A stretch of 64,000 bases of DNA from a virus. The stretch's first letter is position 1; each line of letters begins with the position of its first letter. Location of the stretch: positions 1 to 64,000 of IMG/VR virus record IMGVR_UViG_3300038393_001444. One strand, written 5' to 3'. Shown here piece by piece: positions 13,294 through 32,387 of this stretch. The position numbers were made by a program, and so were the translations under genes. A model generated the notes under the pieces. It saw nothing but the letters and a program-made list of their open reading frames with translations. It did no database searches and was not told the origin of the DNA.

Positions 13294-13319
13294 AAAGCCC
13301 GGTATTCCCGGGCTTTTTT
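13294..13319 (+). terminator. Rho-independent terminator
   Basis: AAAGCCCGG-tattc-CCGGGC-TTTTTT. Confidence 0.85.
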
Positions 13320-23673: not shown

Positions 23674-25452
23674 ATGTCCGACACTACCGAATCCGCCGCT
23701 TTCAATCCCGCCGCGCCTGCCGATGAGCGCGCTGATGCGCTCGGGCAGCTGCAGAAGAGCCACATGCCGACCGCCGTGGATGCGGAAGTCACCGGCAACG
23801 TGCAGCGCATCCTGCAAGAGGCGGTATTCCAGTTCGATGAAGAGCCGCAGCTGCTGGCCAAGTCCTATGTGGCCCCGATCAAGATCCTGTCGGGCAGCCA
23901 GGGCGGCCGGCGCGGCATCCAGTCCGTTACGCTCGATGACTGGACCGTGAACATTCAGGGCGATTACTACGAAAAGCCGTCCGTGCTGTCGTTCGATGCG
24001 CTGCGCACGATGGTCGCGCATACGCCGATCCTCAATGCCGTGGTGATGACGCGCGCGCGCCAAGTGCAGCGCTTTTGCCGCGTCGCCGACAAGGGCGACA
24101 TGCCCGGCTTCGAGATCCGCCATATCGACCGCAATCACAAGCTGTCCAAGTCCGAGCAGGAATCGATCGCGCTCCTGAACCGCTTCATCCTCAACACCGG
24201 CTGGGAATTCAAGCCGCGCCTGCGCAAGACGCTGGGCCGCGATTCCTTCAGCCAGTTCATGGCCAAGTCGGTGCGCGATTCGCTCACCCTGGATTCCGCG
24301 CCGATCGAAGTCGAGTGGAAGCGCGACATGAGCCTGGGCATCGACGGCTTCTATGCGGTCGACGGCTCCACGATCCGGCTGTGCACGGAAGCCGGCTATC
24401 AGGGCAACGACAAGCTGCAGGCGCTGCAGCTGGTGCAGGGGCAGATCCGCACGGTCTATACCCATGAAAACCTGATCTACGAGCCGCGCAATCCGCGCAC
24501 CGATGTGTCGGTCGCCGGCTACGGGCTGTCGGAAGTCGAGTTGATGGTGCGCGTGGTCACGGGTTATCTGAATGCCATGACCTACAACATCGACGGCTTC
24601 GACAAGAACAGCATCCCGAAGGGCATGATGCACTTGTCGGGCAATTACGACGCCAAGGATATCAACAGCTTCCGGCGCTTCTGGAATTCGATGGTGCGCG
24701 GCGTCAGCAATGCCTGGACGCTGCCGGTGCTGGTGTCGAAGGATCAGGAATCGAAGGCGCAGTTCGAAAAGTTCGGCGTCGAATTCGATGAAATGCACTT
24801 TTCCAAGTGGATGACCTTCTTGACGAGCATCATCTGCGCGCTGTTCGGTATGAGCCCGGCCGAGATCAATTTCGACTCGTTTTCCGGCGGCAACACGTCA
24901 CCGCTGGCGGGCTCGGACACCGAAGAAAAGCTGGCCGCGTCCAAGGATTCTGGCCTGCGCCCGCTGCTGTCCTACTACGAAAACACGCTGTCGGATTTCA
25001 TCCTGGCCGAGTTCTCGGAAAACTATGTGTTTCGCTGGACCGGCCTCGATCCCGAAGATGCGCAAATGAAGCAGGATCTGCGCAAGACGGTGCTCACGAT
25101 CGATGAGATCCGCGCGGAGCAGGGCTACGAAAAGCATCCGATGAAGTCGCTGGGCGATGCGCCAGCGAACCCGCAGCTCATGCAGGTGTACATGCAGGAA
25201 ATCGCCCCGGAAGAGCCCGCGCCGATGGCCCCGGATGGCAAGACGCCGCTCGATGGCAGCGGCCATCCGATCAACGAGCAGGGCCACAAGATCGGGCCGG
25301 ACGGCCAGCCGCTGCCGCCGGATGGGGTGCAGAAGGTCGGCCCGGATGGGCTGCCGGTCGATCCGAACGCGGACGATTTCGGCGGCAGCGCGCCCGATTT
25401 CGGCAAGTCGTTCGGCCTGCCGCCCGTGTTCAATGTCGGAGAAATGGAATGA
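23674..25452 (+). CDS. portal protein
   Basis: YAVDGSTI, GYGLSEVE, IPKG, ICALFGMSPAEI, GLRPLL, TIDEIRAEQG; gene position; ATG 23674 with GGGAG. Confidence 0.9.
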   Translation: MSDTTESAAFNPAAPADERADALGQLQKSHMPTAVDAEVTGNVQRILQEAVFQFDEEPQLLAKSYVAPIKILSGSQGGRRGIQSVTLDDWTVNIQGDYYEKPSVLSFDALRTMVAHTPILNAVVMTRARQVQRFCRVADKGDMPGFEIRHIDRNHKLSKSEQESIALLNRFILNTGWEFKPRLRKTLGRDSFSQFMAKSVRDSLTLDSAPIEVEWKRDMSLGIDGFYAVDGSTIRLCTEAGYQGNDKLQALQLVQGQIRTVYTHENLIYEPRNPRTDVSVAGYGLSEVELMVRVVTGYLNAMTYNIDGFDKNSIPKGMMHLSGNYDAKDINSFRRFWNSMVRGVSNAWTLPVLVSKDQESKAQFEKFGVEFDEMHFSKWMTFLTSIICALFGMSPAEINFDSFSGGNTSPLAGSDTEEKLAASKDSGLRPLLSYYENTLSDFILAEFSENYVFRWTGLDPEDAQMKQDLRKTVLTIDEIRAEQGYEKHPMKSLGDAPANPQLMQVYMQEIAPEEPAPMAPDGKTPLDGSGHPINEQGHKIGPDGQPLPPDGVQKVGPDGLPVDPNADDFGGSAPDFGKSFGLPPVFNVGEME

Positions 25453-25784: not shown

Positions 25785-26962
25785 GTTCCCTGCTGCTGGA
25801 CGTCGGCGCGCTGCCGTGCGGTTGCGTCGACCATGCGCTCGAGCACTTTTCGAAAGCGCTATCGGGCGAGGATGGCGAAAGCCCGGATATTTGGGCCAAG
25901 CATGAATCGCCGTTCATCCAGTCGCTGATCGAACTGTTCACCAGCCGGGGCCTGCTGCGCCTGGAAAAGGTGAAGCAGGAGCTCGAAGCCTGGGCGGCCG
26001 GCAAGCGCCACAAGGCCGGCGGCGCGCCGGCGGCGCGGCCGAAGATCCCGGGCCTGCAGTGGACCGACGAAGAAGCGATGCTGGTGAAGGTCTATCTGGA
26101 AAACCTGCCGCCGGAGCAGTTCACCGCCTCGGATTGGGCCCTGGTCGTGGATTATCTGGCGCAGCGCTACTTCCCCAGCAACGTGATCCAGTCCGAAGCC
26201 GAGTGGCTGGCCATGCGCTCGTCCATGATGGGCAAGGTCGCCGCGCACTATGCGGCGGTGGCCGTCACGGTGGCGCAGGCCGATGCGATCCTGGCGGCGC
26301 TGCCGCTGACGGTGGCCGATACGGTCCAGACGTTCGGCTACAAGGGCGCGGCGGTGCAGATCCTCGAGTACGCGCGCGAGCGCTGCTGTGATCAGGTCGT
26401 GCAGCTGTCCGATCAAATGCGGCATCGCATGAAGAAGGTGATCCTCGACTACGAGCAGCAGAAGATCGAAGGCGCGAATCCGCCGGCGGCAGCGCTGGCC
26501 ACGCGCCTGTTCGATGAATTCTCGGCGCTCAACCGCGATTGGCGGCGCATCGCCGTGACCGAAGCCGGCGAGAACGCGAATCAGGGCCTGATCGCCTCGC
26601 TGCCGCTGGGCACCCGGGTGAAGCGCCTCGAGCAGTATCGCGGGGCCTGCCCGTTCTGCAAGAAGATCAACGGCCGGGTGCTGACCGTGGTCGATCCGGC
26701 CAAGCGCAACAAGGACGGCGAGCTCGAAGTCTGGCTGGGCAAGAACAACCTGGGCCGCTCCGGCAGTCCACGGAAGCGCGTCGGCGATGCCTTAGTCGAG
26801 CGCGAGCCGCATGAAAAATGGTGGATTCCGGCCGGTACCGTGCATCCGCACTGTCGCGGCCAGTGGCACGTGCTCACGCCGCCGCCGCCCGGCTCCGATC
26901 CCGGGTTCGCCGCGTGGCTGGACAAGCACGTGCACAAATACAAGGTGGGGCCGCAAGCGTGA
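25781..26962 (+). CDS. MuF/SPP1 gp7-like head morphogenesis protein
   Basis: RRIAVTE...CPFC...HPHCRG; follows portal. Confidence 0.8.
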   Translation: MSSLLLDVGALPCGCVDHALEHFSKALSGEDGESPDIWAKHESPFIQSLIELFTSRGLLRLEKVKQELEAWAAGKRHKAGGAPAARPKIPGLQWTDEEAMLVKVYLENLPPEQFTASDWALVVDYLAQRYFPSNVIQSEAEWLAMRSSMMGKVAAHYAAVAVTVAQADAILAALPLTVADTVQTFGYKGAAVQILEYARERCCDQVVQLSDQMRHRMKKVILDYEQQKIEGANPPAAALATRLFDEFSALNRDWRRIAVTEAGENANQGLIASLPLGTRVKRLEQYRGACPFCKKINGRVLTVVDPAKRNKDGELEVWLGKNNLGRSGSPRKRVGDALVEREPHEKWWIPAGTVHPHCRGQWHVLTPPPPGSDPGFAAWLDKHVHKYKVGPQA

Positions 26963-27456
26963 GCGAAAAACTAACACCGAACGCCGAGCAGCTGGCGCGC
27001 AAGCATCCGATCGCCTACGTGCAGAAGTGGCATGGCCTGGAGCTCGCCATCGAAAACCCGGTCGGCTCGGTGCGCTCGGGTAAGAAGCCGGACGGCACCG
27101 CATGGCATACGACGATGAAGCATGCCTATGGCGAGATCTCCGGCAGCACCGGCGTCGACGGCGATCCGGTCGACGTGTTCCTGGGCCCGGATCTCGAGAG
27201 CGCGGAATTCGTGTACGTGGTGCACCAGCGCCGCGTCGATGACTGGAAAAACTACGACGAGGACAAGGCCATGCTGGGCTTTCCCAGCGAAGCCGCCGCG
27301 CGCATCGCGTTCCTGCGCAATTACGACGATCCGCGCTTCCTGGGCCCGATCACGAAGCTGCCGGTCGCGGAATTCATCCGCAAGGTGCGCGCCACGAAAA
27401 CGCACCCGGCGATGATCAAGTCGCTGCTGCTGTTCTTGCGAGAGAAAGTCAACTAA
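26959..27456 (+). CDS. inorganic pyrophosphatase-like domain protein
   Basis: IENPVGSVR..YG...GVDGDPVDVFLG...DEDKAMLGF. Confidence 0.8.
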   Translation: MSEKLTPNAEQLARKHPIAYVQKWHGLELAIENPVGSVRSGKKPDGTAWHTTMKHAYGEISGSTGVDGDPVDVFLGPDLESAEFVYVVHQRRVDDWKNYDEDKAMLGFPSEAAARIAFLRNYDDPRFLGPITKLPVAEFIRKVRATKTHPAMIKSLLLFLREKVN

Positions 27457-27469
27457 GGAGGAAGGGAAG

Positions 27470-27760
27470 ATGAGCTATTCATTCAGCGCCATCGGCGCAG
27501 ACAAGGAAGCCGCCAAGGCGGCAGTGGTCGAGGAATTCGACAAGCAGGTGCTGGCCTGCCAGCCGATCCATGTGCGCGACCGCGCTGCCGTGATCGCGCA
27601 TGCGCATGCCATGATCGATCTGCTTCCGGACGATCCGAGCAAGGCGGTGCATATCGCCTGCAACGGTTACGTGAGCTCGCCGATCCATGGCGATCCTGCC
27701 GAAGTGCCGCTGTCCGTGGCATCGGCCACCGCCTCGGCATCGCTGATCGAAAGGTCGTGA
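27470..27760 (+). CDS. hypothetical protein
   Basis: Strong AAGGAGG SD. Confidence 0.7.
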   Translation: MSYSFSAIGADKEAAKAAVVEEFDKQVLACQPIHVRDRAAVIAHAHAMIDLLPDDPSKAVHIACNGYVSSPIHGDPAEVPLSVASATASASLIERS

Positions 27761-27769
27761 CGCCATAGT
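27755..27769 (+). promoter_or_regulatory. putative late promoter TCGTGACGCCATAGT
   Basis: Consensus match; no complete ORF before the next terminator. Confidence 0.7.
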
Positions 27770-27775
27770 GCAGCT

Positions 27776-27831
27776 GTCTCCTGGAAGAGATGGAAGATGG
27801 ATTCGGCCCGCGCTCGTCGCGGGCTTTTTTT
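27776..27831 (+). ncRNA. putative ~56-nt late small RNA
   Basis: Bounded by late motif and terminator; 5' UCUCCU, three UGGA motifs. Confidence 0.5.
27806..27831 (+). terminator. Rho-independent terminator
   Basis: GCCCGCG-ctcgt-CGCGGGC-T7. Confidence 0.9.
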
Positions 27832-27833
27832 GT

Positions 27834-27848
27834 TCGTGACGCCATGCT
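27834..27848 (+). promoter_or_regulatory. putative late promoter TCGTGACGCCATGCT (ATG 6 nt downstream)
   Basis: Consensus match; leaderless geometry. Confidence 0.8.
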
Positions 27849-27854
27849 CGCGGC

Positions 27855-30800
27855 ATGAAAAAGAAGCCGCTGATCCTGTTCATGAAGGCCGCCGATATCC
27901 CTGCTGGAAGCAAATGGATAACGGTGCATCCGAATGGCCCCGACACGAAGGGCCAGCCGGTGCTGGTGCAGCCGGTCGAGCCCGGTTCGCACGTGTTGCA
28001 CGTGATCGGCGGTGCGGGCGGCAAGCTGAATTACATGCGCATCACTTCCACGAAGAGCCCGGAAGATTACGCAAAGGAGTCCGGCGAGCGCGCGAAAGCC
28101 AAGCGCGAGGCCGCCAAGGCGCAGAAGGCTGCCGACAAGGCCGCCGGCGTCCACGAAGCCAAGCAGCAGGCCAAGGCCGAAGTCTCCACGCAACAGCGCG
28201 CCGCCGAGCGCGATTTCATCGATACGGTCGCCAAGGCGATGGGCTGGGACGATTCCGCCCTGGCCTTCGATGAGGCCGCGCATGCGGGCGTGTCCGATGC
28301 CGCGCGCGCCACGGCGCTGCGCCAGCACCACGCCGAGCTCCTGAAGCGCGCCAAGGAAGCGGTGGGCCTGCAGCGCCAGCGCCTGCTGATCGATGCCGAT
28401 GCCCGCAAACAGGCATTCACGGGCGAGACGCCGCTGCATACCGATGATGCGACCAAGCTGGGCGTGTCCGATATCGATCCGGTGCGCCCGAACACCGGCA
28501 AAGGCTTCGATCCGGATTACGCCGGCCGCGCCAAGGACAAGGGCCTCACACCCGAAGCGGCCGAAGCCGAAGCCGCCGAAGTGCAGGGCAAGCAGGCCGC
28601 CGGGGCGAAGGACAAGAGCGTGGCGCAGAAGGTCGCCGAAGAGCTCGCCAAGGTCAACGCCGACAAGCCGGATCTGCCGGCGAAGATCGTGGAAGTCCAG
28701 CAGGCGGTGGATCTGCTGGCTGCGCAGAAGAAGCTGGCGGCGATCCAGCAGGCCGCGCGCGCGGCGAACCAGCAGATCGATGCCAGCCCGGAGCCGCATG
28801 GCTACGTGCTGAAGGTGTCCGACGTCGATCCGGCGGCAGTCGAAAAGGAAGTGCTGGACAAGCTGAACACGGCGAAAACGTCGGCCTTCCTGAAGGCGGC
28901 CGCCGAGACCGGCAAGGAAACGCCGCTCGAGCACCACATTGCCGCCGGGTCGTTCAATTCACTCAACGCGCTGGCGCTGGCCGCCGGCGGCGCGCCGCTC
29001 ATGGACCGCTCGGTGGTCGACGTGCTCGGCGCGGAAGCCTCGGCGCAGATCCTGGCGCGCCGGCTGCGAAAGGATCTCGGGGATGATAAGGCGGATGAAA
29101 TTGCTGACGGCATGGGCGGCTTCCATCTGCAGCACTATCAGGGCCTGCAGGAATCTGTGCTTGCGGACGTGGCAAAGCTGCACGAAACAGCCGCGCAGCT
29201 GGAAATCGATGCTGCCCACGGTCCCGCTGATCTGCTGGTTAAGGCGGAAGCCAATCGCCGCCGCATGGCCGCGCTGGATGAGGCGAACCATCTGCTCGGC
29301 CACGCGCTGGGCGAAATGGAAGCGAACGCGGCGATGGTGTATGCCCTGGGCGAGCCGTCGCGCGATGCGGTGCAGGTATCGCTGGGCAAAACGCCGCTGG
29401 TGTCGGCGATCCAGCAGCTGCGCGCGATCGGCCTGGAAAAGGGCGATTATTCACTGCAACAGGAAGCCGGCAATGCGTTTTTGACCATCCATGCGTCGGG
29501 CATGGATCGGCTCGCGGGCCCGGTGGATGCCGCCGGCCTGGAGCAGGTGCAGCGCAATCTCGGCATCATGAAGGGCAGCGAGGACGAGGATGGCTGGCTG
29601 CCGGAAGGCTTCGACGGCCGCGCCGATCTGGCGCTCAATCTCGAGCCGGGCGTCGCGCCGTCGCTGGCGCAGCCGTTCGATGGCCAAGCCGAAGATCTGC
29701 ACGGCGCGCTGCGCGACTACATCGGCTCGCGCATGGCCGATGGCGATGCGCCGGCCGATATCGTGTCGGATCTGCAGTCGGCCGCGTTCTTCGCCAAAGT
29801 CGGCGCGGATCGGGCGGACGATTACCGCGCCGCCCTGGATGCGGTCGCGCCGAACAAGGGGTCGGATGGCAAGCAAATGGTGCGCGCCGAGCAGCTGGCC
29901 CCGCTGTTCGACAAGTATGCGGACGAGTTCGTGGCGTCGAAGTGGGGCGGCAAGCGCTCCACGCTGAACAAGCAGGGCTTCGAGGCCGATGATCACGCGC
30001 AGGAAGCGCTGCACCGCGCGCTGGCCGCCGAGCCCGCCGGTGTTGCCGCCTACAAGCCGATCGGCGAACTGCACGATGGCGACACGAAGGCGCTGCGCGA
30101 CTACTTCTACAAGCACATCGCCAAGGAATCGCCGGAGCTCGCGGCCATGCGCGCCGAGTATGACGATCACCTGAAGGCCGAGCCGGAAAAAACGGTCGAG
30201 GATCTGTTCGGCGAGATCGCCCCGAATCCGGACTGGCAAGCCTGGGATTCCGCGCGCACGGCGCTGGCCGGCAAGATCAAGCAGAGCGGCCTGAATTGGC
30301 AGGATTACACGAAAACGATGCGCGGGCATCAGAAGGCGTATGAAACGCTGCAGGATCTGATCCGCTCGAAAGTCTCGTCCGAATTCGCCCGGCATTACAA
30401 CACCCTGAAGCCCGATGCGCCGCTGAAGCTGGGCAAGACGGTCGTGCGCGGCAACCTGAATCACCTGGATGCGGTCGATCCCGCCGCCCGGGAAGCGCGC
30501 GTAAAGGCCGAGCGCCAGCTGATCGACACGCTGCGCGAACGGCATGCCGGCAAGTACACGTCCGGCTCGGTGGCCGGCAAGCTGGAAGCTGCGAAGGAAG
30601 CCAAGGCAGCCTTCGAGCAGTCGCAAATGGGCTTCTTCTCGAGCGAGGAAGCGCCGGCGGCGCTGTCCGGCGACGATGGCGATATAGGAAATCCTATATC
30701 GCTCGGCGCGGATGAGCGCCACACGATCGGCCAAGCCGCCGAACACAAGCTGGCCGCGATGATGGGCGTGGTCGGCAAGAATTTCGTGCCGGGGCAGCCG

Positions 30801-32387
30801 ACGAAGCTGTTTGCGGCCTCGATGAGCGGCAAGGATGGCATCAAGCGGCAGCGCGCCATCAAGATGCTGCTGGCGAACAAGCGCATGATCGGCGGCCTGG
30901 GCGTGGGCTCGGGCAAGACCGGCATCGGCCTGGGCGCGTTCGCGCACCTGAAATCCACCGGCAAGGCGAAAAAGGGCCTGTTCGTGGTCCCGTCGATCGT
31001 CCAAGGCCAGTTCGGCGGCGAAGCGCTGCGCTTTCTGAAGGCCGGGCAATTCAACTGGCACTGCCAGCCGGGCGCGTCGCACGAAGAGCGGCTGGCCAGC
31101 TACAAGGATGCCGGCACCGACTTCCACGTGGTCACGCATCAGGCGTTCCGCGATGACGTGCTGAAGCTGGCCGCCAAGCACGAGGGCAGCGATCCGGAAA
31201 AGATCGCCGCCGCGCTCGATGCGATGGATGCCGAAGGCCGGAAACACTACATCAAGGACATCCTCGACAAGGAAGGCATCGGCTTCGATTACGTGATGGC
31301 CGACGAGGGCCATGGCCTGCTGAACCGCGAAGGCAAGGAAAACAGCCGGCTGTCGAACGTGGTGCAGGGCGTCACCGATAGCGCCGAATACTACCTGCAT
31401 GCGTCGGGCGATCCGGTCAAGAACGATGCTTCCGAAGCCTTCGATCTGCTGGCGAAAATGGATGGCAAGCGCTACCACGACCGCGCCGCGTTCATGCGCC
31501 GCTATGGCGGCGATTCCCAGCTGGCCAAGGACGGGCTGCGCCGCGAGCTCGCGCGCTATGCCTATCTGGCGAAGATCACGCCGGACGTCAATGTCACGAA
31601 AACCGAGCGGCATATCGAACTGCACCCGGAGCAGCATGCCGCCCTGGATGCGATCGACCGCGCCGCCGCCAAGGTGCGCATCGCGCGCATGAACGGCGGC
31701 GTGGATCTGCCGGCGCTGCAGGAGCTCTCGCCGGAATCCTTCCACGGTGCGCCCGAAGAGCAGCATGCCGAGATCGCGCAGGCGCTGACGAAGGCGATCG
31801 GCGTGATCAAGAACGCGGCGATCAACCGGGTGATCAACGCGCACCCGAAGAGCGCGAAGCTGGACGATCTGGCGCAGACGGCCGGAGAACGCAAGGGCAA
31901 GCCCGGCGTGGTGTTCGCCCGCTCGCTCGCTGCCGTCGAACAGGCCAAGGCGCGCCTGGAAGCCGCCGGCCATCGCGTGGCGGTGATTACCGGCGCGGAT
32001 AGCGCGAAAGACAAGGGCGCGAAGATCCAGCAATTCAATCCGGACGATGGCGATCGGAAGGCCGATATCGTGATCTGCTCGGACGCCGGCGCGGTCGGCG
32101 CGAACCTGCAATCCGGCTCCTGGCTGTATCAAATGGACACGCCGGACACGGCGATGGTGCATGAGCAGCGCAACGGCCGCATCGCGCGCGTGGGCCAGAA
32201 AAACGACGTGGAATTGATCGATGCGATCGCCAACCATCCGCAGGAGCGGCGCGCGCGCGAGCGGCTGGCGAAGAAGGGAGAACTGCGCCGCGTGGTCACC
32301 GATCCGCTCGATGGCATCGATGACACGGGGCTGGCCGCCTTCCTGAGCGCACAAAACCACGCGCAACAGCAATCGATGCTGTTCTGA
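27855..32387 (+). CDS. large SNF2/SF2 helicase-like ATPase (DarB-like position, no methyltransferase motif seen)
   Basis: GVGSGKT, VVPS, MADEGH, ASGDP, GANLQ, QRNGRIARVGQ. Confidence 0.85.
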   Translation: MKKKPLILFMKAADIPAGSKWITVHPNGPDTKGQPVLVQPVEPGSHVLHVIGGAGGKLNYMRITSTKSPEDYAKESGERAKAKREAAKAQKAADKAAGVHEAKQQAKAEVSTQQRAAERDFIDTVAKAMGWDDSALAFDEAAHAGVSDAARATALRQHHAELLKRAKEAVGLQRQRLLIDADARKQAFTGETPLHTDDATKLGVSDIDPVRPNTGKGFDPDYAGRAKDKGLTPEAAEAEAAEVQGKQAAGAKDKSVAQKVAEELAKVNADKPDLPAKIVEVQQAVDLLAAQKKLAAIQQAARAANQQIDASPEPHGYVLKVSDVDPAAVEKEVLDKLNTAKTSAFLKAAAETGKETPLEHHIAAGSFNSLNALALAAGGAPLMDRSVVDVLGAEASAQILARRLRKDLGDDKADEIADGMGGFHLQHYQGLQESVLADVAKLHETAAQLEIDAAHGPADLLVKAEANRRRMAALDEANHLLGHALGEMEANAAMVYALGEPSRDAVQVSLGKTPLVSAIQQLRAIGLEKGDYSLQQEAGNAFLTIHASGMDRLAGPVDAAGLEQVQRNLGIMKGSEDEDGWLPEGFDGRADLALNLEPGVAPSLAQPFDGQAEDLHGALRDYIGSRMADGDAPADIVSDLQSAAFFAKVGADRADDYRAALDAVAPNKGSDGKQMVRAEQLAPLFDKYADEFVASKWGGKRSTLNKQGFEADDHAQEALHRALAAEPAGVAAYKPIGELHDGDTKALRDYFYKHIAKESPELAAMRAEYDDHLKAEPEKTVEDLFGEIAPNPDWQAWDSARTALAGKIKQSGLNWQDYTKTMRGHQKAYETLQDLIRSKVSSEFARHYNTLKPDAPLKLGKTVVRGNLNHLDAVDPAAREARVKAERQLIDTLRERHAGKYTSGSVAGKLEAAKEAKAAFEQSQMGFFSSEEAPAALSGDDGDIGNPISLGADERHTIGQAAEHKLAAMMGVVGKNFVPGQPTKLFAASMSGKDGIKRQRAIKMLLANKRMIGGLGVGSGKTGIGLGAFAHLKSTGKAKKGLFVVPSIVQGQFGGEALRFLKAGQFNWHCQPGASHEERLASYKDAGTDFHVVTHQAFRDDVLKLAAKHEGSDPEKIAAALDAMDAEGRKHYIKDILDKEGIGFDYVMADEGHGLLNREGKENSRLSNVVQGVTDSAEYYLHASGDPVKNDASEAFDLLAKMDGKRYHDRAAFMRRYGGDSQLAKDGLRRELARYAYLAKITPDVNVTKTERHIELHPEQHAALDAIDRAAAKVRIARMNGGVDLPALQELSPESFHGAPEEQHAEIAQALTKAIGVIKNAAINRVINAHPKSAKLDDLAQTAGERKGKPGVVFARSLAAVEQAKARLEAAGHRVAVITGADSAKDKGAKIQQFNPDDGDRKADIVICSDAGAVGANLQSGSWLYQMDTPDTAMVHEQRNGRIARVGQKNDVELIDAIANHPQERRARERLAKKGELRRVVTDPLDGIDDTGLAAFLSAQNHAQQQSMLF

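Follow-up and report, generated by a model that had tools for sequence, protein, structure and literature searches.

A candidate late small RNA cassette resembling Rfam family RF02278 upstream of the helicase gene of a soil phage

A late-promoter motif that serves no gene, followed by a strong intrinsic terminator, lies directly upstream of a helicase gene in the genome of a large soil phage, and the short RNA predicted from this arrangement resembles the bacterial small RNAs (sRNAs) of Rfam family RF02278. A base-pairing sRNA directed against Shine-Dalgarno (SD) sequences is, on sequence grounds, the best-supported reading of the locus, and it seems that the phage has captured and remodelled an RF02278-family sRNA and put it under its own late promoter. 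The fuller proposal, that positions 27755-27831 form a moron-like sRNA cassette which is derived from RF02278, is made late in infection and pairs through its seed with ribosome binding sites, is advanced tentatively, with a likelihood somewhat short of even.

The virus record is 94,344 bp long, comes from a soil metagenome and is rated complete; the window analysed here is its first 64 kb (64,000 nucleotides), and positions are counted from the first base. The nearest named relatives are Bordetella phage vB_BbrM_PHB04 (PHB04) and, further off, Morganella phage Mecenats66. The small-RNA locus sits within the morphogenesis and cargo region (Table 1), in which the helicase gene is followed by genes for the prohead protease and the major head protein and, further on, the tail sheath. 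The 96-aa open reading frame (ORF) upstream of the gap is the final gene of the portal/cargo transcription unit, and its stop codon, TGA (27758-27760), falls within the orphan promoter motif, P1. No homologue of this ORF was found by tblastn against phage records and approximately 100 related loci, nor did looking up its protein product in the Atlas provide a useful clue. A scan of IMG/VR with a single protein returned no close relatives, and a tRNA/tmRNA gene search of the phage sequence found none. This DNA is matched only by a soil metagenome, perhaps the one from which it came, with no RNA run listed.

Table 1. Features of the helicase junction and its surroundings (positions in the window)
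Feature	Position	Strand	Remarks
Portal gene	23674-25452		
Two ORFs without matches	between portal gene and InPase-domain gene		
InPase-domain protein	26818-27456		
96-aa ORF	27470-27760	+	phrog_28387, E 1.8e-12; GC3 0.76
Gap	between 96-aa ORF and helicase gene		94 nt
P1, orphan late-promoter motif copy	27755-27769	+	reads TCGTGACGCCATAGT, fits TCGTGAYNNNANNNT
Predicted small RNA	27776-27831	+	56 nt; 5' end from promoter geometry, 3' end in U-run
CU-rich 5' seed, GUCUCCU	27776-27782	+	complementary to AGGAGAC (anti-Shine-Dalgarno)
Exact tandem repeat, AGATGGA x2	27788-27801	+	within purine-rich tract
22-codon ORF	27790-27858	+	ATGA overlap with helicase start; sole ORF in gap
Intrinsic terminator	27805-27831	+	stem 27805-27825, 8 bp (7 G-C), 5-nt loop, T7
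P2, second late-promoter copy, helicase gene	27834-27848	+	followed by 6 nt, then ATG at 27855
DarB-like SNF2/DEAD helicase cargo gene	27855-32387	+	1510 aa; phrog_62, E 1.6e-143; Helicase_C

The motif TCGTGAYNNNANNNT occurs 17 times in the window, compared with 0.49 +/- 0.72 times in shuffled sequence, and for 15 of these 17 copies a gene begins on the same strand no more than 45 nt further on. The units served in this way are those of the large terminase, portal, helicase, protease, tail, baseplate and lysis genes, and there are more copies beyond the window, one preceding the small terminase gene. The remaining two copies are one that is antisense within a gene and P1 itself, which alone among the intergenic copies of the window lacks a gene start in the next 45 nt. 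In five copies the ATG lies exactly 6 nt past the final T, and the conserved A and final T of the motif are spaced like positions 2 and 6 of a -10 hexamer; by this geometry the last six bases of P1, CATAGT, form a -10-like hexamer. As the A of the ATG falls at the expected transcript start, the first genes of late units would be leaderless, and the helicase start at 27855 is likewise predicted to be so. The link to leaderless late genes drawn in the initial annotation is therefore supported both by the motif counts and by the distance of 6 nt to the ATG. A copy at 577-591 on the minus strand (16.8 bits by the matrix described below) is antisense inside a DNA methyltransferase gene (39-986), and may be a chance occurrence or an antisense promoter.

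Related loci were gathered by means of the helicase N-terminus, 80 from IMG/VR and 27 from bacterial assemblies, and in approximately 36 distinct sequences the motif precedes the helicase gene, followed by 6 nt (occasionally 7) and an ATG. When scored with a weight matrix trained solely on the helicase promoters of these relatives, P1 reaches 16.2 bits, which is the same as the small-terminase copy and higher than the portal copy (14.2 bits), and P2 reaches 18.8 bits. The genome contains 23 matrix sites of at least 11 bits, compared with one to three in shuffled genomes, and P1 is mid-range among the 23. Judged from this comparison of sequences, TCGTGAYNNNANNNT is taken to be a real phage late promoter of fixed geometry, and the relatives provide comparative support for a promoter of this type, with leaderless geometry, that is undescribed and widely conserved.

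In the 16 kb scanned, the terminator at the locus ranks first, and few genome-wide are as strong; P2 begins 3 nt past the T-run of this terminator. Terminator T-runs adjoin the late motif at 13314/13324, 27825/27834, 36181/36190 and 37009/37020; the distance from terminator to motif is 2-7 nt at several late junctions, and also in the relatives L088, L089, L090 and L092. The terminator-promoter pair is thus a recurrent insulator module, in which the T-run may double as an upstream promoter element, and since four late units have a terminator directly before the promoter, a terminator at this position could be anticipated whether or not there is an sRNA. The 12-mer TCGTGACGCCAT has exactly two occurrences in the 94-kb genome, at 27755 and 27834, and so a 12-bp direct repeat flanks a 79-bp unit at P1 and P2, which would fit the insertion of a promoter-RNA-terminator cassette (moron).

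These same observations can be read as the trace of a by-product that has no function in trans. In such a scenario the terminator closes the portal/cargo operon, P1 is a relic or spare copy dating from the recombination through which the 96-aa gene arrived, and any RNA is quickly degraded. The other terminator-then-promoter modules, at 13314/13324, 36181/36190 and 37009/37020, are in keeping with this, as is the direct repeat around the 79-bp unit, which has the look of a recent rearrangement; the matrix score of P1, which is on a par with those of gene-serving copies, speaks against it.

The 22-codon ORF in the gap spans the terminator and hence cannot be complete on the terminated RNA; its GC3 is ~59%, compared with ~83% in real genes, and it is probably fortuitous. 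It would acquire a role if the locus were a cis-acting leader, with P1 and P2 as tandem promoters, read-through from P1 giving a leadered helicase mRNA on which the small ORF couples translation, and the terminator setting the ratio of leadered to leaderless forms. The ATGA overlap of the ORF with the helicase ATG agrees with such an arrangement and, with no Shine-Dalgarno sequence at the helicase start, coupling would be required on transcripts that arrive from upstream. However, in addition to its low GC3 the ORF has a poor SD with a 4-nt spacing and occurs in no relative, the terminator is strong, P2 alone is enough in the ~36 relatives and the similarity to RF02278 would go unexplained, all of which make a leader decidedly improbable. 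The elements that had been recognised initially, namely a full late motif at 27755-27769, no credible gene behind it, a strong terminator and a next gene with its own motif, were all confirmed.

If the geometry of the leaderless genes, in which the start lies 7 nt past the final T of the motif, is applied to P1, the transcript would start at G27776 and be 56 nt long. Its purine-rich tract (27783-27801, 19 nt) holds three GGA motifs, and the AGATGGA tandem at 27788-27801 suggests that the tract grew by slippage from the GAUAUGGA segment of the RF02278 family. A GUCUC/GAGAU hairpin with a CUGGAA loop that holds a GGA had been drawn from inspection of the sequence, and folding does predict it, with 5 bp and -3.4 kcal/mol. 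The seed is ~90-99% paired in the fold prediction, with an unpaired probability of 0.01-0.11 for nt 1-5. The RNA as a whole folds no better than shuffled sequences (z -0.8), and structure alone thus proves nothing.

The GGA motifs have been linked to a protein sponge, in which the purine tract would sequester CsrA/RsmA, or fill the distal face of Hfq, late in infection. Three GGA are found within 19 nt, one in the predicted CUGGAA loop and two in the AGAUGGA repeat, a tandem that resembles ANGGA sites. Pseudomonas has RsmA. Some relatives of the phage infect this genus, for example phage Dolphis (PMC9503643). Nevertheless, in searches whose controls (E. coli, B. subtilis and Thermotoga) were positive, neither the phage nor any of four genomes tested, including the RF02278 carriers Caballeronia and Paraburkholderia, had CsrA (PF02599), and it was present in 1 of 41 Burkholderiales genomes, although the phage host may be of another group. 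No Csr/Rsm family appears among the Rfam matches of the region, even at E <= 10. Known CsrA sponges, moreover, have many more sites. A sponge is therefore unlikely, and retains a small probability as a Pseudomonas phage is among the relatives.

The similarity to RF02278 extends over positions 27775-27832, which match the family significantly, at 33.4 bits (E 2.2e-5 in the region and 2.5e-6 per genome, in E-value mode), and the first base of the model lies within 1 nt of the predicted RNA start. The intrinsic terminator of the phage is aligned by the model with that of the family. This score falls below the curated gathering cut-off of 50 bits, so that by Rfam's criteria the phage RNA is not an RF02278 member, and it is best classed as a single-seed variant related to the family, carried by a phage behind a late promoter; at gathering thresholds Rfam gave no match anywhere in the genome, the window included. 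RF02278 members are double-hairpin RNAs of 57-67 nt with mapped 5' ends, and the CU-rich stretches that they leave unpaired are complementary to ribosome binding sites (PMC4603805, PMC5688073). Growth is slowed when one of them, ncS27, is overexpressed, and the opposite is seen with an antisense to its CU-rich region, while the "toxic" name of the family comes from toxicity on cloning in E. coli (PMC4603805, PMC5688073). In Bordetella pertussis, S17S is Hfq-dependent and represses a sigma54 activator via single-stranded sites, and its 5' region is identical across many Betaproteobacteria (PMC11722255).

The phage RNA was compared with the family in an alignment of ten sequences (A2) that also includes true RF02278 members of 64-84 bits, taken from Caballeronia and Paraburkholderia, and three relatives that score below the threshold, at 33-41 bits. 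The phage RNA and the members share the 5' UGUCUCCU (8 nt identical), the AUGGAUUC linker, GCCCGC..GCGGGC and the U-run, and GTCTCCT is the sole block outside the terminator that is invariant in 10 of 10 sequences. Taking the family's features in turn, the seed (U)GUCUCCUCC is present at the very 5' end of the inferred transcript, and the AUUC linker, Rho-independent terminator and U-tail are present as AUGGAUUC, a GCCCGCG/CGCGGGC stem and U7 in an RNA of 56 nt. The first hairpin (CCAU/AUGG), with its second CU-rich loop site, is missing and is skipped by the model (local end); its 5' half and loop are replaced in the phage by GGAAGAGAUGGAAG and just the 3' half, AUGG, is kept. Retention of AUGG makes descent with remodelling look likelier than convergence. 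UGUCUCC follows the -10 box by 6 nt in the bacterial genes and the -10-like hexamer by 5 nt in the phage, a near-equal spacing that would place the seed at the 5' end in both.

RF02278 is common in Burkholderiales, where 86 of 151 sampled genomes matched, 57 of them above the cut-off. The scores there are continuous from 76 down to ~32 bits, and the sub-threshold matches (33-41 bits) have the same build. In 14 control genomes there was no match at E <= 1e-4, and among 50 related phage records the matches were weak and terminator-driven, the best scoring 25.3 bits. RF02278 members carried by phages do exist: a pattern scan of IMG/VR returned 12 contigs, four representatives of which score above the cut-off (51.7-65.6 bits). 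The members on viral contigs are found at L141:2320-2386 and on L130, L133 and L134, the L141 copy being situated between a phrog_6191 gene and HNH endonuclease and terminase genes. Two functions had been envisaged for the RNA initially; an anti-SD sRNA has been strengthened by the similarity to RF02278, a family with a CU-rich seed, and a CsrA/RsmA sponge has not gained support, with CsrA present in 1 of 41 Burkholderiales genomes and no Csr/Rsm match in the region.

A different relation to the family is that of an anti-sRNA decoy, in which the purine tract, GGAAGAGAUGG, being like the reverse complement of CCAUGUCUCCUCC of the host family, neutralises host RF02278 sRNAs. Approximately 10 of 11 positions resemble the antisense of the RF02278 seed region in A2, and prophage-encoded sponges of core sRNAs, AgvB and AsxR, are known (PMC7873438). 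The predicted duplex with a family member has A-C mismatches, however, and its energy of -17.2 kcal/mol compares with a mean of -14.3 (sd 3.6) for shuffles, 19% of which are as good, leaving a decoy very improbable. The by-product scenario, for its part, leaves unexplained why the 30-nt stretch separating P1 from the terminator should resemble RF02278 (E 2.5e-6), with its seed lying at the predicted start.

Searches of IMG/VR and of the metagenome collection yielded no homologue of the phage RNA variant, so that neither covariation nor conservation speaks for the RNA itself. The late motif followed by GTCTCCT gave 13 matches in IMG/VR, all of them chance or 5' UTRs, and the variant-specific pattern gave four matches in metagenome contigs, all chance. 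The sequence upstream of the helicase promoter is highly variable among relatives. An automatic search of the related loci for promoter-terminator-promoter triplets found none, and a looser search for motif pairs yielded just PHB04 and one other case, in which there is a small leaderless ORF. In PHB04 (NC_047861, gp026/gp025; L003:4218-4497) an orphan late motif, TCGTGACGCAATGAT, stands right after the stop of an Ulx-like gene, and behind it lies a non-coding stretch of 234 nt with a fold z-score of -3.3 relative to shuffles. This stretch holds a Proteo-phage-1 RNA (RF03044, 60.6 bits) and a hairpin with the loop UUCUCCU, and 3' of it are a closing hairpin and then the helicase promoter. The arrangement implies that orphan late promoters feeding non-coding RNAs at the helicase junction are not unique to the phage of the window, and it sets Proteo-phage-1, an orphan motif of Rfam, downstream of a defined promoter in a phage that is in culture. 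RF03044 has no match in the window, and the main text of Weinberg 2017 does not mention Proteo-phage-1.

Conservation in related phages, the lack of which was to count against the initial proposal, is accordingly absent for the RNA sequence, which is a singleton, and present for the arrangement, in that PHB04 has a different RNA at the same junction. A by-product would be in line with the variability of the junction, the singleton RNA and the fold z-score of -0.8; it is harder to reconcile with the orphan promoter and non-coding RNA that the PHB04 junction also has, and overall this explanation is judged unlikely, though it deserves to be taken seriously.

Other non-coding stretches occur in the late regions of the relatives. 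In L088, L090 and L092, approximately 1.6 kb upstream of the helicase, at least 300 nt without an open frame are followed by a hairpin with a UUUCCUCCCU loop, a terminator and a late promoter, and this stretch is another candidate CU-loop RNA in the late regions of the clade. In L012, L024, L025, L031, L062 and L065, a long A+T-rich non-coding stretch with dense GGTAACC/GGTTAC-type repeats is located 300 nt upstream of the helicase promoter, where it takes the place of the gene and RNA of the window; it has the appearance of an array of iterons or binding sites.

If the locus is an RF02278-derived, base-pairing sRNA cassette, P1 would start transcription at approximately G27776 and the terminator would stop it at approximately 27831, producing the 56-nt RNA late in infection; the same sequence would also form the 3' end of transcripts from the upstream operon. 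The RNA would be a shortened RF02278 relative, in which the seed, the AUGGAUUC linker and the terminator have been kept and the first hairpin and second CU-rich site have been lost, and the terminator and U-tail would be the likely Hfq-binding part, as in the family. The seed, GUCUCCU(GG), would then pair with AGGAGAC-type ribosome binding sites and repress translation of host mRNAs and, perhaps, of early phage mRNAs, while the first genes of late units, if leaderless, would be independent of such sites. Firing of P1, accumulation of the RNA, its dependence on Hfq and its targets are thus inferred. Predicted duplexes with target-type sites have energies of -12 to -15 kcal/mol, compared with -3.4 for the hairpin that masks the seed. 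Internal late genes do carry Shine-Dalgarno sites, and that the RNA may favour the leaderless first late genes is an attractive idea.

Candidate targets were sought in the phage genome. On the early strand, two genes have CCAGGAGA at their ribosome binding sites, one RecT-like and the other a 76-aa ORF, a number within chance expectation, and scanning the whole of the G+C-rich phage genome for target duplexes was not informative. The CCAGGAGA sites at 71408-71423 (-) and 90564-90578 (-) are fully complementary to nt 2-9 of the predicted RNA, and AGGAGA occurs 12 times on the minus strand and twice on the plus strand.

A bolder extension is that the RNA, as a late-promoter mimic of the host RF02278/S17S seed, hijacks an Hfq-dependent regulon or damps SD-dependent translation, with the phage's own first late genes escaping; as a whole this appears quite unlikely. 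If it were true, the regulon hijacked would cover transporters, carbon metabolism and sigma54 activators and, given the CU-loop RNAs in PHB04 and other relatives, anti-SD RNAs would be a recurrent late-phase tool of the clade. Should the RNA be made, it would represent a natural single-seed version of RF02278, showing what the seed alone does, as well as a case of host-regulator mimicry by a phage, and it would allow a connection of leaderless late genes with interference at ribosome binding sites to be put to the test.

Among known systems, the RF02278 family (ncS03, ncS05, ncS27 and ncS62 of Burkholderia cenocepacia, and S17S of Bordetella pertussis) resembles the phage RNA in size (57-67 nt versus 56 nt), in the 5'-terminal UGUCUCCU seed at the start, in the AUGGAUUC linker and in the GCCCGC/GCGGGC terminator with its U-run, and the phage RNA would also be a stand-alone gene with its own promoter (PMC5688073, PMC11722255). 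The phage RNA differs in having a purine-rich tract with the AGAUGGA duplication in place of the first hairpin and second CU-rich site, and in its seed being followed by GG instead of CC and being predicted as paired. It further differs in lying under a late promoter, in contrast to the sigma70-type promoters of the family, and in being carried by a large, apparently lytic-type phage genome. Base-pairing sRNAs of phages are known mainly from temperate enterobacterial phages. In lambda 6S RNA and StxS (PR'-tR'), a late promoter likewise leads straight into a terminator with no ORF between, and a short late transcript of the lambda type can be a functional Hfq-binding sRNA (PMC7873438). The late genes of lambdoid phages need Q-mediated read-through, whereas the helicase gene has its own promoter 3 nt past the T-run, and with a separate P2 and a leaderless helicase start no antitermination would be needed at 27805-27831.

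Proteo-phage-1 (RF03044) in PHB04 occupies the same junction of cargo gene and helicase and shares with the locus an orphan late motif, a hairpin, the helicase promoter and, in the UUCUCCU loop of the PHB04 transcript, a CU-rich element; its sequence and structure are unrelated to those of the phage RNA, and its region is longer, at ~234 nt. Morons are independent units of promoter, gene and terminator inserted between the genes of late operons. The cassette is like a moron in that it has its own promoter and terminator, lies between conserved late genes, is absent from that position in relatives and is flanked by 12-bp direct repeats. It would differ from a moron in two respects: its cargo would be a small RNA and not a protein gene, and its promoter is of the phage late type, so that it would be co-regulated with the late genes and not expressed from a prophage.
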